Assembly (NCBI GenBank): GCA_040384765.1 | Contig: JAZKIQ010000005.1 | Location: forward strand, 358-64,357 | Length of the DNA stretch: 64,000 nucleotides | From: Patescibacteria group bacterium | GTDB lineage: Bacteria; Patescibacteriota; Minisyncoccia; Phycocordibacterales; JBBUBG01 | Direction: 5' to 3' | Part shown: in pieces, positions 16,450 through 53,163 of the stretch | Position numbering within the stretch: the first letter of the stretch is position 1 | Layout of the letters: the number at the start of each line of letters is the position of its first letter | The notes under the pieces: model-generated | Databases searched by the model: none | The model's input: only the letters and a program-made list of their open reading frames with translations | Told to the model about the DNA's origin: nothing | Position numbers and translations under genes: made by a program

Positions 16450-16510
16450 CAAGAGTTCAGACATCAGAGTTTAGAGTTCAGTCTGACTGAGCTCTGATCT
16501 CTGAACTCTG
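16450..16510. repeat. family-B palindromic 9-mer cluster copy 1 (rseP start / frr stop gap)
   Basis: caagagttcagacatcagagtttagagttcagtctgactgagctctgatctctgaactctg. Confidence 0.6.
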
Positions 16511-16525
16511 TAATCTGTACTCTTC

Positions 16526-17077
16526 TTATTCTGCTATATCTCCCTCCTTCTTCCCTGCCATGCTCTCAAGCTTCGCATTCGCTTCGTCTACATGCTTCTG
16601 AAGCGCTTCAATATCGCGAAACTTATCGTCCTCTCCTATCTCCTTCGCTTTCTCTTTGGCCGTAATGTCGTTTTTGATCACATCGCGCTCTTTGCGCACC
16701 CGCACGCGGGCCTCTTCGAGCTTTTCCTTGAGCACTTTGCCGAGCATCGTACGGCGCTCCCCAGAGAGCTCTGGAAACACCACGCGGATATTAGAGCCGT
16801 CAGACGATGTTGATACGCCAAGGTTTGCAGCCGAGATCGAAGACTCGATCTCCTTCAACATTACTTTGTCCCACGGAGAGATGACGAGCGAGCGAGAGTC
16901 ACCAAGCGCAATCGCCGCCACGTGCGAAATCTGCATTCGCGACCCGTACTGCTCTACATATACCGAATCGAGAATCGCCGGAGTGGCACGGCCCGTGCGA
17001 ATAGCCGCGAGCTCACGCGCAAACCACTCCTCGATCTCTTTTTGTTTTGCTTTAAACTGAGAAAAATTGTATGCCAT
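16526..17077 (-). CDS. frr: ribosome recycling factor
   Basis: 183 aa; full-length match to Frr. Confidence 0.85.
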   Translation of the reverse strand: MAYNFSQFKAKQKEIEEWFARELAAIRTGRATPAILDSVYVEQYGSRMQISHVAAIALGDSRSLVISPWDKVMLKEIESSISAANLGVSTSSDGSNIRVVFPELSGERRTMLGKVLKEKLEEARVRVRKERDVIKNDITAKEKAKEIGEDDKFRDIEALQKHVDEANAKLESMAGKKEGDIAE

Positions 17078-17093
17078 AGAAAATCATAGTTAC

Positions 17094-17153
17094 CAGAGAT
17101 CAGAGTTTAGAGTTCAGCCAGACTGAGCTCTGATAACTAAACTCTGAACTCTT
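17094..17153. repeat. family-B cluster copy 2 (frr-holB gap)
   Basis: cagagatcagagtttagagttcagccagactgagctctgataactaaactctgaactcttg. Confidence 0.6.
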
Positions 17154-17195
17154 GCTTGGGTCATATACTATCACGACGAACGAGGACCGGCCACC

Positions 17196-17888
17196 CTACA
17201 AAACAAGCGCAAGGTGCTCAAGGATAAGCCGCGGATTCCCTGCCGTCTCCCCTAAAAACGGCTTTACGGCAGAGATCTCTTGGAGTGCACGAACTGCTCC
17301 GGGGTTCGAGGTGAGCTTCTCCCGAAGAGCCTGCTCAAGGGCGACAAGAAATGCCCCCGCAGAACGCTTTTGCGCCTTTTTTTCGTCAGGGTCATCCGTT
17401 TTCTTTACGAGCGTCGCCAGCATTTCGAGGCGTTTTGCGGGTGCAGCGTTCAAAAAGCCGAGCGCCTTGATGCGATCTCCATCGGCAAACTCTGCTCGCG
17501 TGGACTCAAGAATAAAAAAGCGCGACAAGAGCGTCGCCAGAAAAAGATCACGCGATGGCGCAAGGATAAAAAAATGTATGCCTGGGGCCGGATCTTCAAG
17601 CGTTTTGAGAAGAGCGTTCTGCGCTTCTCGCGTGAATGCGTACGACTCCACAACGAATATTCTCTTGGTATCTTTTCGAAATGCGCCACTTCCCGCTTGC
17701 ATTCGCAAATCTCGCGACTCATCTATTCCAACACTCTCCCCCTTCCACCACGAGATATCAGGGTTACCCTCGAGCTCGCGACCGGTTGCCTCAATTAAAA
17801 AAGATCGGAGGTCGGAAGAAAGCATAGTCGTATCCCCCACGACAAGATAAGCATGATGAAGCTTTGTCGGGTCAAGCGAGGTAAACAT
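17196..17888 (-). CDS. holB: DNA polymerase III delta-prime subunit HolB-like (degenerate AAA+); ORF N-terminal extension to 18074 unlikely
   Basis: LHHAYLVVGD...LKTLEDPAPGIHFFILA clamp-loader box motifs. Confidence 0.65.
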   Translation of the reverse strand: MFTSLDPTKLHHAYLVVGDTTMLSSDLRSFLIEATGRELEGNPDISWWKGESVGIDESRDLRMQAGSGAFRKDTKRIFVVESYAFTREAQNALLKTLEDPAPGIHFFILAPSRDLFLATLLSRFFILESTRAEFADGDRIKALGFLNAAPAKRLEMLATLVKKTDDPDEKKAQKRSAGAFLVALEQALREKLTSNPGAVRALQEISAVKPFLGETAGNPRLILEHLALVL

Positions 17889-17979
17889 TCCGAAAGTATA
17901 TACGAACGGACGTTTTTTAAAAAAGAAAAAGCCGGGCATCCGAAAGGATACCCGGCAACACCCCCCCAAGACAGCACCT

Positions 17980-18294
17980 CTACGCGGACGCCAGTCCAAA
18001 AATATATCGGCCAGCGAGAGGAGGATGCGGATGCTTCTGCCAATCAACCACCCGGAGACCATTCTGCTCGGCAAACTCCGAGATCAAGGCGAGCGCTTCG
18101 GCCTCGTTCGTAACCGGGCTCCAAGCAGGCATCTTGTCCTCCTTCTTCCCGCTTGCTAAGAGCCAATACAGCTTTTCAGCTATCCTCACGAAGGCGATCA
18201 ACGTGGGAAGGCCAGGTTCAATGATGATGTACCCACGATCGCCGGGCTGGAGCACTGTCTTCTTGTCAGCAAGCACAAACTGATTAACGGACAC
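17980..18294 (-). CDS. hypothetical protein (GC-rich ORFan cassette, GTG start)
   Basis: 104 aa; SD aaaaggag-6nt-GTG; own consensus promoter P2 upstream. Confidence 0.5.
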   Translation of the reverse strand: MSVNQFVLADKKTVLQPGDRGYIIIEPGLPTLIAFVRIAEKLYWLLASGKKEDKMPAWSPVTNEAEALALISEFAEQNGLRVVDWQKHPHPPLAGRYIFGLASA

Positions 18295-18340
18295 TTGCCT
18301 CTCCTTTTCCTGCGTTGCCGGAAAACCTAACTATCTCAAA

Positions 18341-18386
18341 GTGATACAAAAAAACTATATCACTTTTTTATGAAAAGTCAACTTAA
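18341..18386 (-). promoter_or_regulatory. near-consensus promoter P2 (TTGACT-N16-TGaTATAGT) with 6-bp palindrome gtgata/tatcac at the transcription start
   Basis: minus strand reads ttgacttttcataaaaaagtgatatagtttttttgtatcac; highly similar to P1/P3/P4/P5. Confidence 0.55.
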
Positions 18387-18419
18387 ACGACACCTCCATG
18401 CTGAGACCAGAGACTAGTC

Positions 18420-18524
18420 AAAAATCTTCGAGATGCGAGGAGGTCGGCGAGCATCGAGGCGTAGCTGTACATGGGGTACTGCTAGCCGAGTAGCGGAGCC
18501 GCCGACAAAGCAGATTGAGATTTT
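18420..18524. repeat. family-D element copy 3, between promoter P2 and mreB2 stop
   Basis: aaaaatcttcgagatgcgaggaggtcggcgagcatcgaggcgtagctgtacatggggtactgctagccgagtagcggagccgccgacaaagcagattgagatttt. Confidence 0.55.
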
Positions 18525-18541
18525 GGACGGTCTCCAGAAAA

Positions 18542-19561
18542 CTAGCGCTTAGCATTAACACTCTTTTTATAAACATCGAGATGCTCCAGCGCCACTCCGG
18601 TCCCATTTGCCACACAGTAGAGCGCGTTTTCGGCAAGCACAGCCTTTACACCGGTCCTTCGGTACACAAGCTCTGGCAGGTTGCGGAGTATCGACGAGCC
18701 GCCCGTCATCACGATTCCATAGTCAATAATATCTGCAGCGAGCTCAGGGGGCGTTTCTTGGAGCACATCTTTGATCGCTTTGATCATTTCGCGAAGCTCT
18801 CCATCGATCGCTTTTACGATCTCATTGGTCGATATCTCCACCGATCGCGGAAGCCCTGTCAAAAAATCTCGCCCTTTAATAGCCGTAAACAGCTCATCTT
18901 CCACGAGCACCGCTGACCCGATACTGATCTTCACCTCTTCGGCTGTTCGCTCACCCACCGCCAAGTTGAACGTACGTTTAATATAGTCTGCAATCGCCAA
19001 GTCGATCTTCGTACCAGCGCATTTCACCGATTTGGAAGCAACGATACCTCCGAGCGAGATTACCGCCACATCGGTCGTACCTCCTCCAATATCGACAACC
19101 ATATGTCCGCGTGGCTCATAAATAGGGATACCTGCACCGATGGCGGCCAAGATCGGCTCTTTTACCACATACGCATTTTTAGCGCCCGCTCGTACAGCGG
19201 CTTCGATCACCGCACGACGCTCTGTCGAGGTGACTCCCGCCGGCACCGACACCATCACCTCTGGCTTCCAGATGTTCCAGCGAGGAAGCGCTTTGCCGAT
19301 AAAATAGCGAAGCATGGCCTCCGTCACGCGATAGTCTGCGATGACGCCATCTTTCATGGGCCTGTAGGCGATCACATGATCCGGCGTCTTGCCGATCATA
19401 TCTCTGGCCTCATTGCCCACAGCGAGCACCGTGTTGTCGAGCTCAGACACAGCCACCACCGACGGCTCGTTGAGCACAATCCCCTTGCCAGGCAAAAAGA
19501 CGAGCGTGTTTGCCGTACCCAGATCGATGCCGAGTTTGGTGGTAAAAAAAGGAAGAGCCAT
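18542..19561 (-). CDS. mreB: second MreB/Mbl-like actin homolog; ORF track start 19624 is a TTG extension
   Basis: DLGTANTLVFLPGKG, GGGTTDVAVISLGG. Confidence 0.8.
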   Translation of the reverse strand: MALPFFTTKLGIDLGTANTLVFLPGKGIVLNEPSVVAVSELDNTVLAVGNEARDMIGKTPDHVIAYRPMKDGVIADYRVTEAMLRYFIGKALPRWNIWKPEVMVSVPAGVTSTERRAVIEAAVRAGAKNAYVVKEPILAAIGAGIPIYEPRGHMVVDIGGGTTDVAVISLGGIVASKSVKCAGTKIDLAIADYIKRTFNLAVGERTAEEVKISIGSAVLVEDELFTAIKGRDFLTGLPRSVEISTNEIVKAIDGELREMIKAIKDVLQETPPELAADIIDYGIVMTGGSSILRNLPELVYRRTGVKAVLAENALYCVANGTGVALEHLDVYKKSVNAKR

Positions 19562-19615
19562 GTGTGGGGTTAGTATGCGTTGGCAAGGTTCGTTTTGCAA
19601 ACTGGCCAAAAAAGC

Positions 19616-19722
19616 AAATCCCAAGCACCAAATTCCAGATATATTTCAATATTCAAAATACAAATAACCCAAGTTTAGTATTTGAGTTTTGAGTATTTTC
19701 TGGAATTTGGTGCTTGGGATTT
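19616..19722. repeat. family-F element copy 2 with perfect 24-bp terminal inverted repeats aaatcccaagcaccaaattccaga, in divergent mreB2/priA promoter region
   Basis: perfect 24-bp TIRs; loop aaataacccaagtttagtatttgagttttgag homologous to copy 1 loop. Confidence 0.65.
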
Positions 19723-19770
19723 GAAGAAGGAAGCGCTTCTAGATGCGCCACGTCTATGCCATTATAGCCC

Positions 19771-21709
19771 CATGGAAGAAGCTACCCCGGAGGTCGAACC
19801 CGCTCCGCAAATGTTCCTTATCTCGGTCATCCCTCTCTCGCGCGAGCCGCTCAGCGAAAGCCTTTCGTATTTCAGCAAAAAAAAGCTACCTGCCGGATCG
19901 CTCGTAGAGGTACCGGTACGCAACAGACACCTCTTTGCCCTCGTCTCCTCGTGTGAGTCCGTACTCGATCTTAAATCTGCAATAAAAAACGCACCGTTTC
20001 CGATCAAAAAAATAGACACACTCAAGGAGGGACTTTTTTTTGACGCGCCGTTTCTCGAGGCAATCCGCAAGGCATCGCACTTTTTTGCCGTCTCTCCGGG
20101 CGCACTCCTGCGCACCCATATCCCTGAGGCGATCCTTGAAAACTGGGATGGTCTGGAAGCAAAGGAGATGCCGCCGCGGGGCCTCCCTGCCATATCCGAA
20201 CAGTATCTCTTGCAGGCGCCTATTACCGAACGTGAAGGGATCTATCGCGCGAAAATCCGAGAGGAGTTTGCAAAGAAGCATTCAATCCTCCTCTTGGTGC
20301 CCAGCAAGAGCGCCATCGATGATAGCGCGCTCCGGCTCTCTCGAGGGATCGAAGAGTACACGATCAAGCTCCATGGAGATCTCCCCGCCAAAGAGCTCCT
20401 TGCCAGCTGGAACAAAGCACTTTCCGAGGAGCACCCCGTGCTCGTAATCGCGACCGCACCGTACCTCGCGCTCCCGCGCCACGATATTGGCACCTACATA
20501 ATCGAGCATGAAGCAGGAGCGGGCTACCGCTCTATTGTGCGGCCCTACTACGACTCGCGAACGATCGCCGCATACCTCGCGGCCGCGCGCGGTGCCTCGA
20601 TCATCTTTGCCGACACACTTCTCTCGTTTGAAACACTCCACAAGAAGGAGCTCGGCGAAGCGCAGGCACTCGCTCCACTCAAACATCGGCTTGTCTCAAG
20701 CGGTGAGACAGCGGTGATCGACCTCAAAAAAAACAAAGAGAAAAAGGGTGACTATTTTCTTTCCGCAGAACTCCTCTCGACAATAAAAGAGACCCTTGCC
20801 CGTGAACAAAACCTCTTTTTATTTACAACACGAAAAGGGATCGCCCCGCTGACGGTGTGCAACGACTGCAGCACCACTCTCGGCTGCAGCGTGTGTGGAA
20901 GGCCACTGGTACTCTATGCACGAGAGGCAAAAAAAGAGGGCGAATCAAAGAATGTGTTTGTCTGCCATTCATGCTCAAAAGAGTACCCGACAGATACTCG
21001 CTGCGCTGTATGCGGAAGCTGGCGCTTGGCCCCGCTTGGCGTAGGAGTAGAGCGAGTGAAGGAGGCGATACGCGAGGCATTTCCTGAAGCACATATCTTC
21101 TCGGTAGACCGCGACAGCACCAAAACACACAAGCAGGCGCTTGAGGTGGCAGGGCGCTTTCAAAAATCATCCGGGGCGATCTTGATAGGCACAGAGATGG
21201 CGCTGCCGTACCTCACAGAGATTAGTGTGAGCGCTGTGGTGTCGGCAGACAACCTTTTTGCAATCCCAGATTTTCGGATCAACGAGAGGCTGATGCACAT
21301 ACTAGTCGAGATGCGCGAAAAAACTCGTGGTGCGTTTATCATACAGACCCGAAAGCCTGATCTGCGTATCTTTACTCACGCAAAGCGCGGCACTATTTTT
21401 GACTTTTATCGCGAGGAGATGGAGAACCGCAAGAAATATGACTACCCACCCTACTCTGTTTTTGTAAAAATAACGCGCACCGGAAAAAGCATGGAGGTTC
21501 ATGCAGAGATGGATACTCTTGAGATCGATCTTGCGGAGTGGAAACCCGAGGTGTTCTCAGGTTTTGCGCCGCCCCATGGTGGAGAGGAGACCATGCATGC
21601 ACTTGTGCGCCTCGAACCCTCGCTCTGGCCACACGATAGGCTGATCGCACTTTTGCGAAAGCTGCCGCCAAAGTTTTATATAGAGGTAGACCCCGAGGAG
21701 CTGTTTTAA
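19771..21709 (+). CDS. priA: primosomal protein N-prime (PriA)-like with degenerate helicase motifs; start uncertain (19682 TTG to ~19808)
   Basis: Cys4 zinc-ribbon insert CNDCSTTLGCSVCG...CHSCS...CAVCG typical of PriA; C-terminal domain conserved; no GxxxxGK[ST] Walker A, DEEH replaced by IEHE. Confidence 0.6.
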
Positions 21710-21717
21710 AAAGAAAC

Positions 21718-21754
21718 CCCGACAACCGTCACCGGTTGTCGGGGCGCTCTCAGG
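21718..21754 (-). terminator. rho-independent terminator (minus strand)
   Basis: ccccgacaaccg-tcac-cggttgtcgggg followed on minus strand by tttcttttt. Confidence 0.65.
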
Positions 21755-21787
21755 TGAGAGCTTGCTACTTGGAACTGCTTGGTCGCG

Positions 21788-22171
21788 CTAGGCAGCCCGA
21801 AGCGCGCGGAGGCGGACGTACATATCGTACTCCTGCTTCTTCACGCCCCGCCGAGGCACGACCAAGAGGTCCCACTCGCGAGAGAACTGCTGTTCTCCCA
21901 CTTTGAGCTCCGCGGCCGCGAAGGAGAGGGCCATCCCCTTCAACACCTCTTCAGGGAGAGGCTCACCATCTTCGACTTCGAGGTAGTTCGCGCTGATCCT
22001 CTCGAAGAAGGAGGCAATTTCCGGAGTGAGCTCCGGAACGATGCTCACGCTTTCCATCATCTCGTCGTGCAGGCATGGCCTCTTGTCTGCCCTGCTCGCC
22101 CGACGAGCGAGCAAGATGACGAGCATTACGAACGCACAGACGACCTGGGGCCACGAATCGATAAAGAACAA
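21788..22171 (-). CDS. hypothetical small membrane-anchored protein (GC-rich cassette); boundaries uncertain
   Basis: GC-rich region with overlapping ORFs on both strands; minus-strand terminator downstream; consensus-type promoter TTGACT-N16-TACAGT at 22219-22246 and SD gaggagg suggest TTG start ~22171 rather than ORF-track 22279. Confidence 0.35.
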   Translation of the reverse strand: MFFIDSWPQVVCAFVMLVILLARRASRADKRPCLHDEMMESVSIVPELTPEIASFFERISANYLEVEDGEPLPEEVLKGMALSFAAAELKVGEQQFSREWDLLVVPRRGVKKQEYDMYVRLRALRAA

Positions 22172-22218
22172 GGTGCCTCCTCTGCATTTTGCGCATTTCC
22201 GTCTGGAAAGCTTCCGAA

Positions 22219-23625: not shown

Positions 23626-23740
23626 CCAACGTCAGAGATTGCCGGTTGGTAATCCAACCGAGACCGAAGCTGCACCCGAACGATAGTGAGGAATAAGTGC
23701 AGGTGAGAAAATCTGACACAAGAGATCAGAGCTCAGTTAG

Positions 23741-23785
23741 AAAAAAATTCAAGCCCCGGTTCGCTTGCGCGAACCGGGGCTTTCC
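23741..23785 (-). terminator. GC hairpin terminator (gccccggttcgc-ttgc-gcgaaccggggc), copy 1 of a duplicated hairpin
   Basis: on minus strand followed by ttgaattttttt; near-identical copy at 24102-24131. Confidence 0.6.
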
Positions 23786-24668: not shown

Positions 24669-25376
24669 CTACTTCACTACTACGCTCGTGAGCAGAATAT
24701 CCGTAAGCGGTTTGTCTCCTTCTCCATGATTTACCGGAGCTGACTCGATCTTATCAACAATATCCATACCAGAAACGACACTGCCAAAAGCGGTATGCTT
24801 GCCGTCGAGCCATGGGGTTGCCGGGGCAGTGATAACAAAAAACTGCGAACCGTTTGTGTTTGGCCCCGCATTTGCCATTGCGAGCACACCACGCACAAGC
24901 GCCTCATCGCTCGTCTCGTCTGCAAACTGGTAGCCTGGGCCGCCAGTGCCCCAAGAGGCCCGCTTGCTTGAATCCTTTGAAAACGGATCTCCGCCCTGGA
25001 TCATGAACCCCTTGATCACTCGGTGAAAGCGGGTGCCATCGTAAAAATGCTCATGTGCAAGCTTGAGAAAATTTTCAACTGTCTTTGGAGCCTTATCGCG
25101 AAAGAGCTCGAGCTCGATAATGCCAAGCGAAGTGGTAAAGACAACATGAGGGCGAGCATTTGGGGTTTCCATAGGTTTTGGTGGGGTTTTTATAGCTGGA
25201 GAAGTAATAGCAGGAGCGGTATGAACTCCTGAGACAGCCGCGTCTCGAACAAATGAGTCTTGCTCTGTCGCGACTGACCGCGAAAAGAACACGAGGCCAC
25301 CTGCAGTAAAGGCTGAAAATACAATAAAAGTGATCCAGTAGGCGATATCTTTCATTAAAATAGAATACCGCATCAA
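24669..25376 (-). CDS. ppiB: membrane-anchored cyclophilin-type peptidyl-prolyl cis-trans isomerase
   Basis: N-terminal TM; FHRVIKGFMIQGGDP cyclophilin signature. Confidence 0.8.
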   Translation of the reverse strand: MMRYSILMKDIAYWITFIVFSAFTAGGLVFFSRSVATEQDSFVRDAAVSGVHTAPAITSPAIKTPPKPMETPNARPHVVFTTSLGIIELELFRDKAPKTVENFLKLAHEHFYDGTRFHRVIKGFMIQGGDPFSKDSSKRASWGTGGPGYQFADETSDEALVRGVLAMANAGPNTNGSQFFVITAPATPWLDGKHTAFGSVVSGMDIVDKIESAPVNHGEGDKPLTDILLTSVVVK

Positions 25377-25388
25377 GAGATAAGAGGC

Positions 25389-25479
25389 CAGAGTTCAGAG
25401 CTCAGTCAGAACGAAAGCGGCGCCTCGAAGAGGCGCCGCAGCCTGAACTCTGTTTACTGAACTCTAATCTCTAAACTCT
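25389..25479. repeat. family-B cluster copy 3 with embedded GC hairpin gcggcgcctc-gaa-gaggcgccgc (hpf-ppiB gap; last unit overlaps hpf stop codon)
   Basis: cagagttcagagctcagtcaga...gcctgaactctgtttactgaactctaatctctaaactct. Confidence 0.6.
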
Positions 25480-25840
25480 ACTCCCCCGTATGTATCATCT
25501 CCTTGATCGCGCGGCCCCCTTTGCGTTCAAGATCCTTCTTTTTATCGCGAAATGAGGTAACCTGCTCCTCGATCTCATCTTTCACTGCATCAATAGCCGC
25601 ATACATATCCTCTTTTTCTGCTGTCACCGTAAACTTCTTGCCATACGCGCGCAAAATAATCTCCGCCTTGAATATAACTCCGGATACGTGATGTTTCGTG
25701 GTCTTGCCGATATCCACCTGGGCAATTGCAGCATCCTCGGTTGCATCTACGATTTTGCCTACCTGGGTAAGCTTTTTTTCAACATACGAACGCAGCGCTT
25801 CTGTAAGATCAGTACCTACTGCCGTAATATTGATTTTCAT
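25478..25840 (-). CDS. hpf: ribosome hibernation promoting factor (HPF/RaiA family, short form)
   Basis: MKINITAVGTDLTEALRSYVEKKL... sigma-54 modulation protein fold. Confidence 0.8.
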   Translation of the reverse strand: MKINITAVGTDLTEALRSYVEKKLTQVGKIVDATEDAAIAQVDIGKTTKHHVSGVIFKAEIILRAYGKKFTVTAEKEDMYAAIDAVKDEIEEQVTSFRDKKKDLERKGGRAIKEMIHTGE

Positions 25841-31664: not shown

Positions 31665-32138
31665 CTATCTGAATGGATTCGGAATCGGTGCACGCCAGAG
31701 AGATCTTCTGCGCACCGTTCGCCATGGATAGAAAAGTCGCGCCATCACCACCTCTCCGCGCAGGAGAAGCTGACGCTGTATTCCGAAGAGCTGGATCGCA
31801 AGAAGCGTATACAGCCGGATCATTGCAGGCGAGTAACTGTGCGGCACAATGAGCGGCACCACTCCCTTAGGTCGTGTCATAAGCCGCTCCGCCTCGTACA
31901 AGCGAATACGAGTTTGCTTGACCTGAATTCGCAGCGTCGAACCATCACGCAGATACATAACGGCATCTGTTTTTTCGTGATAGTCCTCATGCTTGGTCGC
32001 CCGTCGGACGTACGCAAGCCACGGAGGATAGTAGCGCGGATTCGACCACGCAGAGACAAACAGCTCCTCCGAAATGCGTCCGTTTCGGTTGCCAACTACT
32101 CCATCAACAGCACTCAAGAAAGAGACCTCCTTAAACAA
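31665..32138 (-). CDS. hypothetical protein divergent from lexA (candidate SOS-regulated gene)
   Basis: 157 aa; shares the LexA-box-containing intergenic region with lexA. Confidence 0.4.
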   Translation of the reverse strand: MFKEVSFLSAVDGVVGNRNGRISEELFVSAWSNPRYYPPWLAYVRRATKHEDYHEKTDAVMYLRDGSTLRIQVKQTRIRLYEAERLMTRPKGVVPLIVPHSYSPAMIRLYTLLAIQLFGIQRQLLLRGEVVMARLFYPWRTVRRRSLWRAPIPNPFR

Positions 32139-32212
32139 GAACCCCCGCAGGGACTATACCGAGGAGTTGTGGCGCGAGCAAGAAAAAGAGTTTTCCACCG
32201 TCTGCGCTTGCA

Positions 32213-32230
32213 TGTGTACGATCGTACACA
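32213..32230. promoter_or_regulatory. putative LexA operator: perfect 18-bp palindrome TGTGTACGATCGTACACA (GTAC-N4-GTAC type)
   Basis: perfect palindrome 13-30 nt upstream of lexA ATG in the divergent region. Confidence 0.6.
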
Positions 32231-32242
32231 CATACTAGATGC

Positions 32243-32812
32243 ATGAGCATAAAACATACCATCGACCGAATCCGTACTTTTTATGATAGCCGAAAGCGCA
32301 TGCCTTCCGTTTCAGAGCTTGCAAAGCTGTTTGGCTACACCTCAAAGACCGCAGCCGCACGCCTTATCTCAAAGCTCATATTGGAAGCGGGATTTGAGAA
32401 AGATAAGGAGGGCAAGCTGCTCCCGCCTGATGACTGGGGCGAAATCATGATGCTTGGGTATGTTGAAGCAGGCTTCCCCTCCCCGGCCGAAGAGGAGCTC
32501 ATCGACACCATGTCGATCGACGAATATCTGATACAGCACCGCGAACGTACCTTCATCCTCACCGTAAAAGGTGACTCAATGAAAGATGCAGGTATCATGC
32601 CAGGCGACCTGGTGCTCGTAGAGCGTGGACTTGAGCCCAAAGATGGACAGATTGTAATCGCAAGTGTAGATGGCCAGTGGACAATGAAATATTTTAGAAA
32701 ACGAAGAGCGAGTGTCCTCCTTGAGCCAGCCAATGCTCGCTACAAGCCGATCGTTCCGAATGAATCTCTAGAAATTGGAGCGGTTGTCAAAGGCGTCATC
32801 CGAAAATATTAA
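32243..32812 (+). CDS. lexA: LexA repressor (S24 peptidase)
   Basis: N-terminal wHTH, Ala-Gly cleavage region, KGDSM Ser and MKYFRKR Lys dyad. Confidence 0.85.
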   Translation: MSIKHTIDRIRTFYDSRKRMPSVSELAKLFGYTSKTAAARLISKLILEAGFEKDKEGKLLPPDDWGEIMMLGYVEAGFPSPAEEELIDTMSIDEYLIQHRERTFILTVKGDSMKDAGIMPGDLVLVERGLEPKDGQIVIASVDGQWTMKYFRKRRASVLLEPANARYKPIVPNESLEIGAVVKGVIRKY

Positions 32813-32919
32813 AAAATGCATCGCGAGGCCCTACGAGCGATTCCACTTCCCCAACCACACCCACCCCAACGAGCAGATAAGAGAAATTCGCTTTCCGGTA
32901 GTTCTTTAAGAAAAGCTTG

Positions 32920-33045
32920 CGCAGTCGTCCGCAGCCGGTGCGGGGCATTTTTAAGTGTCGCTCAGCAGAGCAATGCCCCGACCGGACGACGAAAACCAGA
33001 ATAATTTTCCGCTGGGAAAATTATTCTGGTTTTCGAAAAGAATCT
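32920..33045 (+). other. two adjacent long stem-loops between lexA and dinB
   Basis: hairpin 1: gtcgtccgcagccggtgcggggcatt ... aatgccccgaccggacgac; hairpin 2: perfect 23-bp stem cgaaaaccagaataattttcc-gctg-ggaaaattattctggttttcg. Confidence 0.5.
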
Positions 33046-33066
33046 ACCGAAAAGCGACCGAAACCC

Positions 33067-34392
33067 ATGTTCCAACGATACAACGAACCCATTGAAATCA
33101 GCTCGTTCCCTCGCGCCATTATCCACATCGACGGCGACGCCTTTTTCGCTTCCTGCGAACAGTCGAAAGACCCTTCGCTCCGAGGAAAAGTAGTGGTCAC
33201 TGGCAAAGAGCGCGGGATCGTAGGATCTGTATCGTACGAGGGCAAAGCGCTTGGCATATCCCGCTCGATGCCCCTCTTTGAAGTACGGAAAAGATTCCCT
33301 CAAGCGATTATTCTCCAGTCGGACTACGAAACGTACTCCCTGCTCTCACACCGTTTTTTCTCTATCGTTCGAAGATACACACCCGTAGTCGAGGAGTACG
33401 GCATTGATGAGTGTTTTGCCGACCTCACTGGCATGCGAGGGCCACTTCACAAATCGTATACACAGATTCTCGATACGATTCAAAAAGAGCTCGCGCTCGA
33501 GCTTGGATGCACCTTTTCGATCGGTATGTCTGTAAATAAGGTGCTCGCAAAAGTCGGCTCAAAATGGAAGAAGCCTTCCGGCACGACGCTCATTCCAGGC
33601 CGCGATATCAAAACATTTCTGCGAGACCTTCCTGTACAGAAGATCTGGGGTATTGGGTTTGCCACAACAGCGCACCTCGAAAAACTTGGGGTACGCACTT
33701 CGCTCGAGCTAGCAGAGAAGCCACGCGAGTGGGTTGAGCGCCACTTTTCAAAACCAATGGTCGCCTTGTGGCGTGAACTAAACGGAGAGTATGTCATGGA
33801 GCTTAATCGAGAAGAGAATAGTGCTCCAAAATCGATTCAGAAATTCAAAACCTTCACGCCACCCTCGTCTGACTTTGATTTTGTTTTTTCACAAATCTCC
33901 AAAAATATCGAAAATGCCTGCATCAAAGCGCGCCGCTACGGGCTCGCCTCTCCCCGCATGCAACTGGTGTTACGCGAGCAGAACTTTCGCATGTACGGTA
34001 TCGACATCACCTTTTCCCGAAAAACAGCCTATCCCAACGAAATAGTTGTTCTTGCAAAAGAGGCGCTCCTTAAAATCTGGCGCCCCAAAGTGAGCTACCG
34101 GCAAACAGGGGTAACGCTCATCCTCCTTGAAGATGCTGCCCTCGAACAACCCGACCTTTTTGGTGAATCGCTCCGCACAGAAAAAATGGAACGAATTTTT
34201 GAAAAAGTAGACGCGCTCCAAGAGAGATACGGAAAACATACGGTGTATCTCGCCTCCTCAGAAAAAGCGCACCGTTTCTTTGTGCACGGAGGGGCTCGAG
34301 GAGACAGCGCGCTACGAAGGGGCGCCGAACTCATTGGAGCAACCAAACGGCAACATCTGGGAATACCGATCTTCCTTGGCGAAATACAGTAA
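33067..34392 (+). CDS. dinB: DNA polymerase IV (Y-family, DinB); ORF-track start 32917 is an extension
   Basis: IIHIDGDAFFASCEQ catalytic motif, SxGxS thumb, little-finger domain. Confidence 0.8.
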   Translation: MFQRYNEPIEISSFPRAIIHIDGDAFFASCEQSKDPSLRGKVVVTGKERGIVGSVSYEGKALGISRSMPLFEVRKRFPQAIILQSDYETYSLLSHRFFSIVRRYTPVVEEYGIDECFADLTGMRGPLHKSYTQILDTIQKELALELGCTFSIGMSVNKVLAKVGSKWKKPSGTTLIPGRDIKTFLRDLPVQKIWGIGFATTAHLEKLGVRTSLELAEKPREWVERHFSKPMVALWRELNGEYVMELNREENSAPKSIQKFKTFTPPSSDFDFVFSQISKNIENACIKARRYGLASPRMQLVLREQNFRMYGIDITFSRKTAYPNEIVVLAKEALLKIWRPKVSYRQTGVTLILLEDAALEQPDLFGESLRTEKMERIFEKVDALQERYGKHTVYLASSEKAHRFFVHGGARGDSALRRGAELIGATKRQHLGIPIFLGEIQ

Positions 34393-43279: not shown

Positions 43280-43384
43280 CCCGTTAGAAATTTTAGTTAG
43301 CAAAGATCACTCTATCCACAAAACAGTGATAATGGAATAAATGGTTAAACAATGAAGTACTCTTTCTATTTCTAACGGGACTCA
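43277..43384. repeat. family-A inverted-repeat element copy 1
   Basis: catcccgttagaaat ... atttctaacgggactcat; left arm supplies/abuts ATG of gene 42788-43279. Confidence 0.6.
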
Positions 43385-43468
43385 TCCCGAGAGAATAGCA
43401 CAGCACATTAGACAAAAGAAAAACCGCGAGCACTAGTGCTCGCGGCCAACCAAAAAACTAACTATGAA

Positions 43469-46288: not shown

Positions 46289-46307
46289 GTACCTAGCATA
46301 TCACGAG

Positions 46308-46410
46308 CAAGAGCTCAGTTGTCAGAGTTCAGAGTTCAGCCAAACAAAAGAGCGACGCCCTACGGGCGTCGCTCTTTTACTAAACTCTGAACTCTAATCT
46401 CTGAGCTCTG
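46308..46410. repeat. family-B cluster copy 4 with embedded terminator-like hairpin agagcgacgccc-tac-gggcgtcgctct-tttt
   Basis: caagagctcagttgtcagagttcagagttcagcc...ttttactaaactctgaactctaatctctgagctctg. Confidence 0.6.
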
Positions 46411-46413
46411 GCA

Positions 46414-47757
46414 CTAAAACACCGTGACCGTGGAGTTTACGCTACCGTTGGTAAAGCCAAAGGGGGCTGTGGCATTGAACAGTATTGGGAACGTCCCACG
46501 CTGGTTGTACGTGTGGGTAAACGTAAGAGTCTGTACCCCTGGGTTTGATACTGTTTGCACCGAAGAAAAAGTCGAAGAGAAGCCACTCTGCAGCTCATCA
46601 CCCCAGCGCGCCAAAAGAGTGATCTGTCCTCCTGTCGTGTTGTTTACCGTAACGGTCCAGGTGCCCGTAGAGCCAAGGGCGAGCGAGCTTGGGCCGTTTA
46701 CGCTTGTGATAAGGCCGCCAAAGGTCTGGTTGAACTGCTGGTTAGACTGACCACCAAAAAACGGACTGTTTGTCGTGAGGACAAATGGGAGTGAGTTGCT
46801 CCGCACGCCGCTGGTGCCACTTGAAACTGAAATGTCGTACGAACCGGGAGCAATAAGCTGAGAGCTACAGTTGAATGAGCAGTTGCTTGGGAAGAAGGTT
46901 GCGGGTACACGAAACGAGAGCGTTGTACCGTTCGAAGAGCTGAGCTGCTGATCCGTGATCGAGATCCCCCCAAACTGCACGATGTTTCCTGAAGGCGCAA
47001 ACCCCGAGCCCACAATCGTGACGATCTGCCCTGCTGTTCCCGAACTGTTCGAAAGCGAGGTGATCGTAGGAGTGCTGTTATATCCGTAGTACGGATAGTT
47101 CTGGCTATACTGATTTTGACCAGAGTACTGGTATGCGCTGTTGTAGCTATTGGTGTAGGTGTATGGATACGTGTACTGAGAGCCATACTGGTTGTATCCG
47201 TACAGGTTGTTTGGGTACTGACCAGTGTACTGATACGCACCGCTCGAGTACGGATTGTTTCCGTACGGCTGGTACATCCAGTTCTGATAGTCATTCTGAT
47301 ACGAGTTGTATGCACCGTATGTCGAACATGCTGCAGCTATCGCAGAGCGTGTCTGTGGGCCCACGGTGCCTGTTGGCGTAATGCCATTGCGAGACTGATA
47401 GATTGCTACCGCCGACTGTGTGTTCACATCGTAATATCCACTTACCACAAGATTTCCTACACCAAGGTTCTGAGCGAGGAGAAATGACTGGAGGCTTGTT
47501 ACGCTCGAGTCGCCAAAAGCAGAATCGGTTGAACCAAGCGAGAGATCACGCGAGACGGTAGGACACGAAGAACCATAAGGGCCGTTATTGTACGGGGAGT
47601 ACCCAGAGTACTGAGTACCGTACCCATACTGCGGATAGTAGCCATAAAACTGAGCAAGCACAGCACTACTTCCCAAGATCACAGCTCCAAGGGCCAAAAA
47701 CAGCTGAAATACAGGGTTTTTAAGGACATTTTTAGTCATTATAGTTAGTTTGGTCAA
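46414..47757 (-). CDS. secreted peptidoglycan-binding-domain protein with long Y/N/Q/S/G-rich low-complexity region
   Basis: signal peptide; PG_binding_1-like LQSFLLAQNLGVGNLVVSGYYDVNTQSAVAIYQSRNGITPTGTVGPQTRSAI; prion-like Y/N/Q repeats. Confidence 0.55.
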   Translation of the reverse strand: MTKLTIMTKNVLKNPVFQLFLALGAVILGSSAVLAQFYGYYPQYGYGTQYSGYSPYNNGPYGSSCPTVSRDLSLGSTDSAFGDSSVTSLQSFLLAQNLGVGNLVVSGYYDVNTQSAVAIYQSRNGITPTGTVGPQTRSAIAAACSTYGAYNSYQNDYQNWMYQPYGNNPYSSGAYQYTGQYPNNLYGYNQYGSQYTYPYTYTNSYNSAYQYSGQNQYSQNYPYYGYNSTPTITSLSNSSGTAGQIVTIVGSGFAPSGNIVQFGGISITDQQLSSSNGTTLSFRVPATFFPSNCSFNCSSQLIAPGSYDISVSSGTSGVRSNSLPFVLTTNSPFFGGQSNQQFNQTFGGLITSVNGPSSLALGSTGTWTVTVNNTTGGQITLLARWGDELQSGFSSTFSSVQTVSNPGVQTLTFTHTYNQRGTFPILFNATAPFGFTNGSVNSTVTVF

Positions 47758-47822
47758 AATGGCTTATTTTGCAAGGAGGTAAAAAATAAGATAACAGAGG
47801 TACGAAATGTCAATATTCTTCC

Positions 47823-48092
47823 TCAGAGAAGAACAGCCTCATCGACAAGCACCGTGAGGACGTTTGCGGTATCCATATGAAGAAAACCGCCCGCAATACT
47901 GAAGGTTTTTGGTTCTCCACTTTGGGTCTCGAGCTCAGCTGTTCCAGCTACAAGCACGGTCGCAAAAGGACGGTGGTGGTTGAGCACCGTCACCTCTCCT
48001 AGCTCGGTTTTTACCGTAAAGCGCTTTGCTTCACCTTCGTATTCAACGCCTTTTAAAGAGATAACTTTCGTGTGCATAGAGGCTTTTAGCAT
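47823..48092 (-). CDS. atpC: ATP synthase F1 epsilon subunit (short)
   Basis: beta-sandwich epsilon N-domain; last gene of atp operon. Confidence 0.7.
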   Translation of the reverse strand: MLKASMHTKVISLKGVEYEGEAKRFTVKTELGEVTVLNHHRPFATVLVAGTAELETQSGEPKTFSIAGGFLHMDTANVLTVLVDEAVLL

Positions 48093-48107
48093 TCGACTTT
48101 TACCTTT

Positions 48108-49612
<1,505 letters not shown>

Positions 49613-49613
<1 letters not shown>

Positions 49614-50560
49614 TACTGGTTTACGATCGCTGATGATATCTCGGTCATCTCCTTAGTAATTCCTGCCTGTCTCGCTTTGTTAAAAAGAAGGAGAAGTCCC
49701 TCGCCAAGCTCGCTTGCATTGTCCGAGGCGCTTTTCATGGCAACTCGTCTGGCAGAATGCTCACTTGCGTTTGCCTCAAGCAAGAGCTGGTAGAGCTGCA
49801 TGGAGACCAGATGCGGCATGAGCACAGCAATGAGTCGCTCAGGGCTTGGTTCAAAAATATACTCTTCCTGCGAAAGCGGGGGCTCTTCTTCTACTTTTGC
49901 ACGCAACTCTGCAAAACGGCCGTGCTCGGGTACGAGCTCGGCAATCGTATCGTGGATAGTATCGATATGGAGCGGAAGGAGCTCACGGACAAGAGGCTCT
50001 TGCCTAAGAGTGGTCCGAAAATGAGTGGAGACAACCACCACGCGATCCCATCGACCATCTGTATACCCCTCGCTTATGAGGTCCGCAATCGGCTTTGATT
50101 CAAGCGGGGTCACATAGTCGCCAAACCCTTCGAAAGAGCCGACGATCTCGAGACCCTTTTTTGCACCATACGAAAACGCCTTCTTTCCCACCAGAGCAAG
50201 CTTGTAGGTGTGCCCCGCCGTCTGCGCATGAATATCCTTTGCAAGAAACGCATCGGCGGCCCTCATGAGCTGCGAATTGAATGCTCCCGCAAGCCCGCGA
50301 TCTGACACCATCACCACCAGAAGAGTTGTTCGAACAGCCCTTCCAGCAACAAAAGGCGCACTCGCCAAAATATTACCGGGAGTGTGCAGAAGAAGCTCTC
50401 TCAAAATAGAAAGCGCAGCAAATCCGTAGACGCGAGAGCGCAACGCCACCTCTTGGCTCTTGCGCATCTTCGTCGCCGAGACCACCTCCATTGCCTTGGT
50501 GATCTGACCGATATTTTTTACGGCGTTTCGCCGCGCTTTTATATTCTGGAGGGATTCCAT
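49613..50560 (-). CDS. atpG: ATP synthase F1 gamma subunit
   Basis: 315 aa, conserved N- and C-terminal coiled-coil helices. Confidence 0.85.
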
Positions 50561-50562
50561 AG

Positions 50563-52092
50563 CTACTTGCGGATCGAACGATACGAGTCGATTGCTTTTT
50601 TCAGCGCACCCTCAGTTGTCTCATCAAGTGCCCCAGACGACCGGAGAGGCTCCACAACATCACTATCATGGCGCGCGCCAACATATTCAATGAGACCCTT
50701 CTGAAACGCACGCACCTCTTCCTTCGGGATATCGTCGAGATATCCATTGAGCGCGGCGTACAGCTCGACCACTTCGAAGTAAAACGGAAGCGGGTCGCCA
50801 TCCACCTGCTTCAACACCTCGGTCAAAAGCTCACCGCGCGAGATGCGCTTGCGGGTGTGTTCATCGAGGTCAGAGGCAAACTGCACAAACGCGGCAAGCT
50901 CTCGAAACTGTGCGAGCTCAAGGCGCAGCCGACCAGCCACCTTTTTCATCGCCTTGGTTTGGGCCGCCGAACCTACGCGCGAGACCGAAAGTCCTACGTT
51001 GATAGCTGGACGAATACCCTGATGGAAAAGGGCATCCTCAAGATAGATCTGACCGTCAGTGATCGAGATAACGTTGGTCGGAATATATGCGGACACATCT
51101 CCAAGCTTCGTTTCGATGATAGGCAAGGCGGTGAGTGATCCTCCTCCACGCTCACGGTCGAGCTTTGCCGCACGCTCGAGCAACCGAGAGTGAAGATAGA
51201 AAATATCTCCCGGATACGCCTCGCGGCCCGGACTTCTTCGAAGAAGGAGCGAGAGTTCGCGATAGCTGTCGGCATGCTTTGAAAGGTCGTCGTACACAAT
51301 GAGCGCATCCTTTCCGTTGTACATAAAATACTCTCCGATTGCTGCCCCAGCGAAAGGTGCAAGGTACTGGAGCGACGCACTTGCAGAGGCTGGCGCGGAT
51401 ACAACTACGGTGTATTCAAGCGCGCCCGCGCGCTCAAGATCACTCACAATCTTTGCGATTTTTGAGTTCTTCTGCCCCACCGCAACATATACGCAATACA
51501 CCTGGGGTCGGCCGGGGTCAGCCTTCTGGTTCAAAATAAAATCAAGCGCTACGGCAGTTTTTCCGGTCTGTCGGTCGCCGATGATGAGCTCACGTTGTCC
51601 GCGACCCACAGGGATCATGGCGTCGATCGCCTTTACTCCTGAATGAAGCGGCACTTTTACACTCTCGCGAGATACTACGTTTGGCGCAGCTCGCTCAAGC
51701 GGATAGCGCTCTCCTTTACCCTCTGCAAAAAGGACACCTTTGCCATCAAGCGGAAGGCCAAGCGGCGACACCACGCGCCCAAGAAGCTCCATGCCCACAG
51801 GAACCGAAAGGACCTCCTTTGTACCGCTCACCCGGTCCCCGACCGAGACGCCGCTCGCATCGCCAAGGATAATGGAACCGATGAACTGTTCTTCGAGGGA
51901 AAAGGCGATTGCAGGTACCGCACCTGAAGCGGTTTCAATAGAGAGAAGCTCTTGCGAAAGTGCTTCGGAAAGGCCCGAGATTTTCGCAATTCCATCGCCC
52001 ACCTCTACCACCGTACCCACCGAGCGAAGCGCCGGGTCATCTTTAAACTCAGCTATCTCGCGCTTAATTTTCTGGATAATTTCGTATGACAT
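50563..52092 (-). CDS. atpA: ATP synthase F1 alpha subunit
   Basis: GDRQTGKT Walker A. Confidence 0.9.
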   Translation of the reverse strand: MSYEIIQKIKREIAEFKDDPALRSVGTVVEVGDGIAKISGLSEALSQELLSIETASGAVPAIAFSLEEQFIGSIILGDASGVSVGDRVSGTKEVLSVPVGMELLGRVVSPLGLPLDGKGVLFAEGKGERYPLERAAPNVVSRESVKVPLHSGVKAIDAMIPVGRGQRELIIGDRQTGKTAVALDFILNQKADPGRPQVYCVYVAVGQKNSKIAKIVSDLERAGALEYTVVVSAPASASASLQYLAPFAGAAIGEYFMYNGKDALIVYDDLSKHADSYRELSLLLRRSPGREAYPGDIFYLHSRLLERAAKLDRERGGGSLTALPIIETKLGDVSAYIPTNVISITDGQIYLEDALFHQGIRPAINVGLSVSRVGSAAQTKAMKKVAGRLRLELAQFRELAAFVQFASDLDEHTRKRISRGELLTEVLKQVDGDPLPFYFEVVELYAALNGYLDDIPKEEVRAFQKGLIEYVGARHDSDVVEPLRSSGALDETTEGALKKAIDSYRSIRK

Positions 52093-52104
52093 CCGGTACT
52101 GTTT

Positions 52105-52488
52105 CTAATTTCTAGAACTAAACAACCGCTTGAGCTTTCCTCGAAGAGAAAGGTCGAGTTCACTGCCCCCGTCAATCGTGATACGAACTCCTGCAATCAA
52201 CTCTGGCGCAACTCGTGTCTCGATGACATCTTTTTCGTTGAGACGTTTTGCAAGTTCGCTGATCGTTTCTGCACGCGGTGCCCGTGCAAACTCCAGGAGG
52301 ACAACACGACCCCCTTCACGGCGAGCCAGAGTCCGCTCTGCAAGAGAAAGAATGCTGTCTGATCTCTCGGTATCGCCATTGCGGCGAACAAGCTCGGCAA
52401 ATCGCCTCGCAATCGCTTCAGTGTCACCCTTTGTCTCTGACAGAACCTCGACAAGCGCATCGGCGTAAGCTTGGGCAGAATATTTCAT
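52105..52488 (-). CDS. atpH: ATP synthase delta (OSCP) subunit, truncated form (127 aa)
   Basis: YAQAYADALVEV N-terminus; position between atpF and atpA. Confidence 0.7.
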   Translation of the reverse strand: MKYSAQAYADALVEVLSETKGDTEAIARRFAELVRRNGDTERSDSILSLAERTLARREGGRVVLLEFARAPRAETISELAKRLNEKDVIETRVAPELIAGVRITIDGGSELDLSLRGKLKRLFSSRN

Positions 52489-52573
52489 CCCGTTAGAAAT
52501 TTAAGCTCTTAAACAACCATCGACATTCGATGTTTAGCGCTTTATGTAGCTGTGTATTTCTAACGGGATTCAT
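52486..52573. repeat. family-A inverted-repeat element copy 2 (atttctaacggga arms) spanning atpF stop to atpH ATG
   Basis: catcccgttagaaat ... atttctaacgggattcat; left arm contains atpH start codon. Confidence 0.6.
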
Positions 52574-52576
52574 ATA

Positions 52577-53077
52577 TTATTTCTTCCCAAGCTCTCGCAT
52601 TGCTTCCGCAATCAAAGCCTCATCAACCAACGACGGGCTAAGCGAAACTGTCTTTTCAAAGAGCGCTCGAACGAAGGTTGCTGCCTCTTCCTCAACATCG
52701 TCCATCACCTCTTTGCGCTCACGCAGCGCAATCAGTTTTGCCTCCTCTACGATACCGTCGGCCTTCGCCTGCATAAGTGTACGTACTTTCTCGCCCTCTG
52801 TGCGAGCCTCTTCCTCAGCTTTCTGGATCATTCGCAAAGCCTCTCCTTCTGCTTCCGCAATTTTGAGAGCTTTTTGCTTTTCCGAATCCGACAGATTACG
52901 CTCTGCGTGCTTTGCATCGAGTAATCCCTTTGAAATCGTCTGCTCACGCTCTGCTACCAAAGCAAGGAGAGGCTTGTAGAGAGCAAAGTAGAGCACCACG
53001 AGCACCACCAAAAAGTTCACCCCATGAGCAAGGAGAGCGGGTCCGTTGATACCTAAGTTGGTGAAGAGTTCTGACAT
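52577..53077 (-). CDS. atpF: ATP synthase Fo b subunit
   Basis: N-terminal TM plus long charged helix. Confidence 0.8.
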   Translation of the reverse strand: MSELFTNLGINGPALLAHGVNFLVVLVVLYFALYKPLLALVAEREQTISKGLLDAKHAERNLSDSEKQKALKIAEAEGEALRMIQKAEEEARTEGEKVRTLMQAKADGIVEEAKLIALRERKEVMDDVEEEAATFVRALFEKTVSLSPSLVDEALIAEAMRELGKK

Positions 53078-53080
53078 GAG

Positions 53081-53163
53081 CAGAGAACAGAGTTCAGTTA
53101 TCAGAGTTCAGAGTTCAGTCAAACTGAGCTCTTGCCTCTAAACTCAAAACTCTGAGTGAACTC
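53081..53163. repeat. family-B palindromic 9-mer cluster (agagttcag/ctgaactct units) filling atpE-atpF gap
   Basis: cagagaacagagttcagttatcagagttcagagttcagtcaaactgagctcttgcctctaaactcaaaactctgagtgaactcc. Confidence 0.6.

Follow-up and report, generated by a model that had tools for sequence, protein, structure and literature searches.

Inverted pairs of AGAGNTN heptanucleotide arrays between genes of a Patescibacteria group bacterium: a candidate new member of the bacterial heptamer repeat class

The question raised by a 64,000-nt stretch of DNA from a Patescibacteria group bacterium (GenBank assembly GCA_040384765.1, contig JAZKIQ010000005.1, positions 358 to 64,357; the whole stretch is hereafter called the window) is what the clusters of short inverted repeats that fill five of its intergenic gaps may be. 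We show here that each cluster is built from a tandem 7-nt unit, AGAGNTN, laid out as an inverted pair of arrays, and our best reading is that the AGAGNTN family is a new member of the heptamer repeat class and not a regulatory site conserved among relatives. For the fuller proposal, that the elements are a dispersed, non-autonomous family resembling repetitive extragenic palindromic (REP) sequences and MITEs (miniature inverted-repeat transposable elements), and represent the inverted-pair form of the heptanucleotide class of short tandemly repeated repetitive (STRR) sequences, we see an even chance of being right.

A sequence-only reading of the window had reported the five sites, and all five lie in intergenic gaps at the coordinates that it claimed; it overlooked a sixth, a half element at 23721-23737. 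The motif AGAGYTYAG has 26 matches on the two strands together, against 2.74 expected (standard deviation 1.8, maximum 8, in 100 dinucleotide shuffles of the window), and chance or low complexity is thereby ruled out as the origin of the arrays. Within the five reported gaps lie 25 of the 26 matches, the other (23728) lies within the half element, and none falls in coding sequence, so that the similar frequency inside genes on which the claim of intergenic enrichment would have foundered was not seen. The two-unit pattern AGAGNTNAGAGNT, with at most one mismatch, gives 27 matches (5.2 expected), 22 of them in the six sites.

The 9-nt palindromic unit that had been proposed was not borne out. 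Matches are spaced by 7 or 14 nt and the unit is the 7-nt tandem repeat AGAGNTN; the 9-mer is one heptad plus the first 2 nt of the next, so that 9-mers overlap by 2 nt, and CTGAACTCT is merely the reverse complement, not a separate unit. Tandem Repeats Finder detects period-7 arrays in four of the five elements (1, 3, 4 and 5), and in element 2 the register was read directly from the sequence. The arrays also extend further than first given, with degenerate in-register heptads (AGACATC, AGTTGTC, AGAGATA, CTGTAAT and others) lengthening the arms. The plan of an element is a left arm (AGAGNTN)3-5, a centre and a right arm (NANCTCT)3-6, realized as follows (all five full elements lie between co-directional minus-strand genes, as the sequence-only reading had it).

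Element 1, 16452..16523: left arm AGAGTTC AGACATC AGAGTTT AGAGTTC, loop AG-TCTGA-CT, right arm of 5-6 heptads (GAGCTCT GATCTCT GAACTCT GTAATCT GTACTCT); between the frr stop codon (16526-16528) and the ATG (16442) of an M50-peptidase gene; RNA fold -30.9 kcal/mol, z -3.3.
Element 2, 17095..17152: AGAGATC AGAGTTT AGAGTTC, AG-CCAGA-CT, GAGCTCT GATAACT AAACTCT GAACTCT; between the stop (17196) of a DNA_pol3_delta2-domain gene and the frr ATG (17077); RNA fold -26.4 kcal/mol, z -3.7.
Element 3, 25376..25479: 4-heptad left arm, TCAGA, central hairpin, 5-heptad right arm; the right end overlaps the stop (25478-25480) of an S30AE-family gene and the left end is 2 nt from the ATG (25373, first in-frame) of a peptidyl-prolyl isomerase (PPIase) gene; RNA fold -59.6 kcal/mol, z -6.2.
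Element 3 central stem-loop, 25417..25439, minus strand: GCGGCGCCUC-UUC-GAGGCGCCGC then UUUCGUU; 10 pairs, 9 of them G-C; predicted to be terminator-like for the minus-strand genes.
Element 4, 46310..46409: left arm AGAGCTC AGTTGTC AGAGTTC AGAGTTC, then AG-CCAAA, a putative terminator, and right arm CTAAACT CTGAACT CTAATCT CTGAGCT CT; begins 4 nt past the stop (46414) of a peptidoglycan (PG)-binding protein gene and ends 21 nt short of the DUF2914 ATG (46288); RNA fold -74.5 kcal/mol, z -11.2.
Element 4 central hairpin, 46345..46379: AAAAGAGCGACGCCC-TAC-GGGCGTCGCTCTTTT, composed of A-tract, stem and T-tract, the predicted form of a bidirectional intrinsic terminator; on the minus strand the stem (46379-46345, 15 pairs) is followed by UUUUGUUU, and a UUUGUUU tail was detected.
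Element 5, 53082..53153: left arm AGAGAAC AGAGTTC AGTTATC AGAGTTC AGAGTTC, loop AG-TCAAA-CT, right arm GAGCTCT TGCCTCT AAACTCA AAACTCT; in the gap that separates the atpE stop (53165) from the atpF ATG (53077) in the ATP synthase operon; RNA fold -31.2 kcal/mol, z -2.2.
Half element, 23721..23737, plus strand: AGAGATC AGAGCTC AG then TTAGA, the left arm only; between convergent genes, with an unrelated terminator (23751-23782) adjoining.

Since the arms are tandem heptanucleotide repeats, we place the elements in the long simple sequence repeat (LSSR)/STRR class. Each arm has 3-6 units, where the class has at least three 7-nt units head to tail; one unit is found at several intergenic loci (six in 64 kb); and convergent, opposite-strand arrays of one unit lie close together, as in the inverted-pair heptamer arrays of the Xanthomonas type. 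Heptad counts are unequal between the two arms and the order of heptad variants also differs, that of one arm not being mirrored by the other any more than the likeness of the units would give (permutation p 0.88). Being of unequal length and having no mirrored variant order, the arms behave as independent arrays, and the missing mirror symmetry argues against palindrome-templated copying. Among neighbouring heptads, taken unfiltered, positions 1-4 and 6 are 70-78% conserved, and we reject position-specific constraint inside the heptad given the modest contrast with positions 5 and 7. At the centre, three copies have a 5-nt loop (TCTGA, CCAGA or TCAAA); elements 3 and 4 have a loop plus a G+C-rich stem-loop, then a U-tract on the gene strand. 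The extra GC-rich hairpin that had been noticed in two copies (at 25.4 and 46.3 kb) is present and terminator-like on the gene strand, and the sequence form of an intrinsic terminator (G+C-rich stem-loop and U-tract) occurs at these two centres only.

The elements occupy the gap from the upstream stop codon to 2-21 nt ahead of the downstream ATG. Closeness to the start had been recognized with a distance of 5-35 nt, which our measurements replace, and contact with the upstream stop, claimed for two copies, applies to four of the five, in which the stop is overlapped or at most 4 nt away. The gene orders concerned are the DNA_pol3_delta2-domain gene (holB-like), frr and the M50-peptidase gene (rseP-like), with an element on either side of frr; the S30AE-family gene (hpf-like) and the cyclophilin PPIase; the PG-binding protein and DUF2914; and atpE and atpF. 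Shine-Dalgarno-like sequences are rare ahead of start codons across the window.

Do the copies derive from one another? A non-repeat core, GACTGAGCTCT, is common to four of them. Elements 1, 2 and 5 and the reverse complement of element 3 contain the core YCWRACTGAGCTCT (an invariant 11-mer, ACTGAGCTCT, preceded by R), which reaches into the loop and in which the innermost heptads differ asymmetrically by T/C; since this asymmetry is not producible by repetition alone, the four copies that have it descend from one sequence and did not originate separately. Element 3 is the common core with a terminator inserted, in the orientation opposite to that of elements 1, 2 and 5, and a constant orientation of the asymmetric core relative to genes is accordingly rejected. 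The CTATTATC motif of Clostridiales is symmetric.

Comparison with close relatives indicates when the family was acquired. In about 76 kb of syntenic contigs (L117, L118, L120, L121/L122 and L202, from four relatives; frr 73-85% identical) there is no AGAGNTN array, nor any convincing period-7 array. In these relatives 8 or 21 nt separate frr from rseP, unless that gap is taken up by another palindrome, whose core is CTCGCGCCGTCGCGCTGC; between hpf and the PPIase gene there are 0-3 nt, where the window has about 100 nt. Presence/absence variation of the kind seen in MITEs is thus evident, the orthologous gaps of L117, L118, L120, L121 and L202 being empty of our elements, and since these gaps are without arrays we conclude that the family was gained recently, after the split from those relatives. 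The stop-to-start spacers of 0-21 nt in the relatives suggest a reliance on translational coupling. No strain variation was seen in the only other contig of the species (L001), which is identical. An inverted-repeat element with the CTCGCGCCGTCGCGCTGC core lies at 6539-6661 of the window, at 10540-10760 of L117 and at 1050-1235 of L121; because this core fills the frr-rseP spacer in two relatives and heptad element 1 fills it in the window, the spacer appears to be a repeated landing site for palindromic elements.

The AGAGNTN architecture is not confined to this lineage. We scanned one genome per GTDB species (596 Gb) for AGAGYTYAGAGYTYAG, a gap of 5-35 nt and then CTRARCTCT, for which chance would give about 2 matches by our own estimate under uniform composition, and found at least 115 loci in about 50 assemblies and at least 11 phyla. 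The carriers, with taxa taken from 80 listed loci, include Bacteroidota, Gemmatimonadota, Acidobacteriota, Bacillota, Pseudomonadota, Campylobacterota, Chloroflexota, Planctomycetota, Actinomycetota, Calditrichia, Victivallaceae, Patescibacteria and Saccharibacteria, and among the Pseudomonadota there is a cultured isolate, Aliivibrio sp. S4MY1 (L019). The AGAG-type architecture is identical at every scanned locus, the distribution is patchy, and particular genomes have many copies with a unit variant of their own (AGAGCTC/AGAGGTC, AGAGTTN or AGAGTTT/AGTTATT). Viral contigs in IMG/VR gave no match, and a phage origin is rejected on that account.

Within the element-bearing loci, 427 of 1090 tandem arrays have period 7, and an inverted partner lies within 120 nt of 153 of the 205 AGAG-type arrays, counted in fetched loci that form a sample selected for that arrangement. 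Moreover, unrelated heptads (among them TTGGTCA, AGGCTCG, AAACAGG, AATGCAA, GGAATGA, GATTGCC, AGCGCAA and GGCATCA) build the same (unit)n-centre-(reverse-complement unit)n palindromes in these loci, so that what the class conserves is its 7-nt period and palindromic layout rather than the sequence of the unit. A Blastocatellia metagenome-assembled genome (MAG) has at 4087-4213 of locus L007 a palindromic array (TTGGTCA)n ... (TGACCAA)n; we take TTGGTCA to be one of the classical cyanobacterial STRR heptamers, which would make it one heptad in distant phyla. Elements lie in 49 co-directional, 17 convergent and 14 divergent gaps, a mix close to what intergenic regions offer, and hence are not confined to the places of terminators or promoters; of 90 edges that face a stop codon, 41 lie within 10 nt of it. 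In three Bacteroidia MAGs (L002, L009 and L057) palindromic AGAGTTT-type arrays lie directly between tRNA genes.

The polarity of the arms depends on the family. In a much larger metagenome collection we found 79 cases with the CTCT arm first, nearly all belonging to a near self-complementary AGAGCTT/AAGCTCT family or to an unrelated REP-like palindrome. Since the reversed arrangement is common in AGAGCTT/AAGCTCT, polarity is family-specific and a universal rule of a G-rich 5' arm is rejected. Extended AGAGTTY arrays with the CTCT arm first are almost absent from that collection, and among the loci already gathered, a biased sample, AGAGTTY occurs in the opposite and the usual polarity 0 and 37 times, respectively. 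The REP-like perfect palindrome, AAAAGAGCTCTGAGCTCTTTTT-CCGCNGCGG-AAAAAGAGCTCAGAGCTCTTTT, is present at L126, L135, L137 and about 20 other metagenome loci; it occupies many loci of one soil organism, immediately past stop codons, and is separate from the AGAG arrays.

Considering how a dispersed family of this kind could arise, we suggest that copies may spread at the DNA level through a trans-acting enzyme or recombination, that after the spread the arms would lengthen and shorten by 7-nt slippage, and that copies would survive only when placed exactly between a stop codon and the following start. The folded stem would rejoin the stop and start codons, so that translational coupling might be little disturbed in a tightly packed, Shine-Dalgarno-poor genome. 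The mRNA stems of 26-75 kcal/mol, which in two copies embed terminators, may in addition act as 3'-end barriers or processing sites.

A number of observations weigh against this proposal. Among the roughly 64 open reading frames (ORFs) of the 64-kb window there is no gene for a transposase (Y1_Tnp or other), a REP-associated tyrosine transposase (RAYT) or a recombinase; a transposase is what the sequence-only reading had advised looking for elsewhere in the genome. All-against-all clustering of 714 ORFs from the 115 element-centred loci gave no specific family that could be a partner gene in cis, the recurrent families beside elements being generic ones (SDR, epimerase, histidine kinase, radical SAM and FtsX). 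No target-site duplication is visible at the five copies, whose flanks (CA..TC, CC..TG, AG..AC, CA..GG and GC..) have no common direct repeat of the kind expected of MITEs. Nor are the copies near-identical, as young MITEs usually are, with a parent insertion sequence (IS): centres and arm lengths vary, a core of 11-16 nt is found in four copies only, and the window holds no IS. Selfish spread alone does not explain the recurrence of the same unit in many phyla. The cross-genome statistics were obtained with crude longest-ORF gene calls, and the effects on mRNA and the juxtaposition of stop and start are ones that we infer. Finally, one orthologous pair of elements (L011/L036) has flanks of 92% identity; about 2 of 45 nt have changed in its arms and 8 of 20 in its centre, one right arm has 4 heptads and the other 2, and the neighbouring spacer is strongly diverged, a pattern that points to constraint on the arms and would also suit a functional reading.

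That functional reading, already raised in the sequence-only reading, is that the heptads are iterated sites for an oligomeric DNA- or RNA-binding protein with a 7-nt register, serving as operators or RNA platforms; we consider it possible though unlikely. It keeps weight because the arms of L011/L036 are so much better conserved than their centre and adjoining spacer and because the AGAG.T. unit is present in at least 11 phyla; the polarity of AGAGTTY also agrees with it, and transcripts ending inside elements 3 and 4 would leave the 5' arm single-stranded. Stem pairing by itself, however, would also slow the evolution of the arms. Several unrelated heptads make the same architecture within the same genomes, so that one specific protein cannot account for the class; close relatives with the same genes have no sites, which argues against core regulation; every intergenic class is occupied, even gaps between tRNA genes; and no candidate gene lies nearby.

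We give a similarly small chance to the related idea that a trans-acting factor with a 7-nt register, acquired by horizontal transfer, has the AGAG.T. palindromes as its substrate, its product or its binding array; such a factor could be a nuclease or transposase, a polymerase that adds repeats or a binding protein that forms oligomers. If true, this would explain one unit and polarity in particular genomes of at least 11 phyla, the array-free sister genomes, and the recurrence of heptamer repeats across unrelated bacteria, and the repeat system, mobile or self-propagating, would be of a new class. One block of the window was considered as a cause of the repeats, through an error-prone polymerase.

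32135-34389 of the window: block of an S24 peptidase (UmuD/LexA-like) and a Y-family DNA polymerase, in a CPR genome of reduced size; in relative L202 it lies at 9350-11326.

The block is missing at that site in L117, and homologues adjoin elements in L021, L112 and L182. A heptad-free relative (contig k141_121009) has the syntenic block at 74% identity, and we therefore reject it as the cause.

A further alternative, which we rate as rather improbable, is that the elements are RNA structures under selection in operon transcripts, where they would terminate or attenuate transcription, be cut by RNase III or hold back 3'-exonucleases; by analogy with REP at malE/malF they might, for example, raise the output of atpE (the c subunit) or frr relative to neighbouring cistrons. 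All five elements are predicted to fold into long hairpins (-26 to -75 kcal/mol, z -2.2 to -11.2), elements are placed directly past stop codons, two copies carry putative canonical terminators oriented for the genes, one follows atpE within the atp operon, and some elements elsewhere lie between tRNA genes. The hairpins, however, are stable on either strand, and the transcribed strand is not favoured. Of 35 co-directional contexts, 18 have the more stable fold on the sense strand and 17 on the antisense strand, and G-U pairs number 52 and 48 of 1055 in sense and antisense, respectively (Wilcoxon p 0.86); these contexts thus have neither the sense folding bias nor the G-U excess that a structured RNA under selection would have on the transcribed strand. 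The transcript bears no mark of selection, and strand-even Watson-Crick symmetry is what a DNA-level origin leads one to expect. In addition, elements also lie between divergent genes, and the orthologous sites in relatives, with gaps of 0-21 nt, have none. Rfam gave no match at the gathering threshold in the whole window, the elements yielding only sub-threshold hairpin-like matches, and a known RNA family as their identity is rejected on this basis; a search of the window for tRNA and tmRNA found none.

A purely local mutational by-product, in which 7-nt polymerase slippage (a preference proposed by Mrazek, as cited in PMC4679880) would expand the bases of pre-existing hairpins on both sides with no dispersal between loci, is very unlikely, for although period 7 dominates among tandem arrays, the arms lack both equal length and mirrored order, orthologues have unlike numbers of heptads, and terminators are central in elements 3 and 4 and adjoin the half element, one unit is present at five loci with the same asymmetric non-repeat core at four, whole genomes have their own unit 'dialects', and the tiny spacers of the relatives hold no hairpin to seed expansion.

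Other palindromes and arrays were observed in the window.

2519-2627 and 19615-19723: 'family A', arms with AAGCACC heptads and AAATTCCAGA, the centre AT-rich; both copies run up to a start codon (Mur ligase ATG, 2513; start of the ORF at 19679).
8734-8761: four AAGGGAC-type heptads in a direct array that has no inverted counterpart, 6 nt ahead of the start (ATG at 8728) of a gene for a class II aminoacyl-tRNA synthetase; it resembles the TAACTGA-type 'repeats in place of ribosome-binding site'.
13798-13876: palindrome of an 8-nt unit (AGGACAGA) plus AGTAGT, spanning the entire gap from a tRNA synthetase stop (13878) to the mreB ATG (13797).
43280-43400, 52489-52609 and 58581-58701, minus strand: 'family C', inverted repeat TCCCGTTAGAAAT ... 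ATTTCTAACGGGA, the right arm fused to the ATG of three genes (a 171-aa protein of unknown function, atpH and DUF2585).
49492-49613: 25-nt inverted repeats around a 72-nt centre between atpG and atpD, another palindromic insert in the ATP synthase operon.

Among the long simple repeats of bacteria, those with a heptanucleotide unit were recognized as the commonest in 2007, and in cyanobacteria they have been noted since 1990. The AGAGNTN family offers a clean example of a recent gain that can be set against sister genomes without heptads, and one unit with one architecture across many phyla, including bacteria of the candidate phyla radiation (CPR), which have tiny genomes. Recent gain, cross-phylum spread and a cultured carrier together open the origin of heptamer repeats to testing. 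For annotation they carry a warning, since arrays of this kind are not CRISPR-like or REP elements, nor are they regulatory sites kept through descent.

Turning to known systems, the sequence-only reading had compared the elements with REP sequences, bacterial interspersed mosaic elements (BIMEs) and repeat units of pneumococcus (RUPs). The likeness in behaviour stands (dispersed, intergenic, hairpin-forming, present here and absent from relatives), whereas membership does not, as there is no GTAG/CGTC head, no single conserved palindromic unit and no visible target duplication. A REP is a single imperfect palindrome of 20-40 nt, headed by GTAG or CGTC and accompanied by a cognate RAYT gene, and REP, BIME and REPIN (REP doublets forming hairpins) sequences can stabilize upstream mRNA. 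Like our elements these are short intergenic palindromes, often in inverted pairs, of high copy number and genome-specific, located past stops and inside operons; the arms in the window, by contrast, start with AGAG and are tandem 7-mers without such a tag, and no RAYT was seen in the window. MITEs such as RUP, Correia/NEMIS and BOX are also small, non-coding, bounded by inverted repeats, dispersed and variably present, some with terminators, but the window elements are without target duplication, conserved internal module or parent IS, and their arm length changes in 7-nt steps.

Contiguous 7-nt units in direct and inverted orientation are also read by oligomeric proteins, with orientation mattering, in the WATCACW heptads of the omega repressor of inc18 plasmids and the UAG-N4 repeats of HutP; these, however, are single regulatory loci with a known protein and no central loop, and are not dispersed genome-wide. 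The Rfam family Ocean-VII (RF03092) has a consensus, UGAGUAUCAGGGAUCAGAGA, that resembles AUCAGRG heptads, and it matches the window at 16481-16509, 17087-17123 and 46385-46417 with 16-17.5 bits against a gathering score of 53.5, so that the elements are not members. The consensus being itself heptad-like, this published 'RNA motif' may belong to the same repeat class. Our literature search found no mention of AGAGNTN repeat strings.

Closest in layout are the GGGAATC repeats of Xanthomonas, intergenic tandem heptamers at about 200 sites per genome (Rehm et al. 2015, PMC4692102), of which 70-75 are convergent inverted pairs and potential stem-loops or cruciforms; between related strains their length varies while the single or inverted-pair type is kept (PMC4692102). 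They differ in being G-rich and studied as G-quadruplex formers, which AGAGTTY cannot be, in being conserved at 83% of sites between two species, where the window sites are absent from relatives, and in having no reported cross-phylum distribution (PMC4692102). Heptamers are the most abundant long simple repeats according to Mrazek (2007), as cited in PMC4679880, and in Nostoc they have modest effects on expression (bioRxiv 10.1101/2022.06.06.494920). Cyanobacterial STRRs and heptanucleotide LSSRs (Mrazek 2007, as summarized in PMC4679880) are likewise intergenic 7-nt tandems with one unit at many loci, patchy and often near start codons; they are mostly direct arrays, whereas those in the window are paired with inverted copies, have another unit and occur in a CPR/Patescibacteria host. 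The TAACTGA repeats of Beggiatoaceae, Cyanobacteria and Bacteroidetes, for which horizontal spread is suspected (MacGregor 2015, PMC4679880), differ in being almost all direct (one indirect repeat in 170 sets), with another unit and no hairpin (PMC4679880), and resemble the elements described here as a heptamer present in unrelated phyla, a few nt ahead of starts, in gaps without Shine-Dalgarno sequences, including those of ribosomal and essential operons (PMC4679880).

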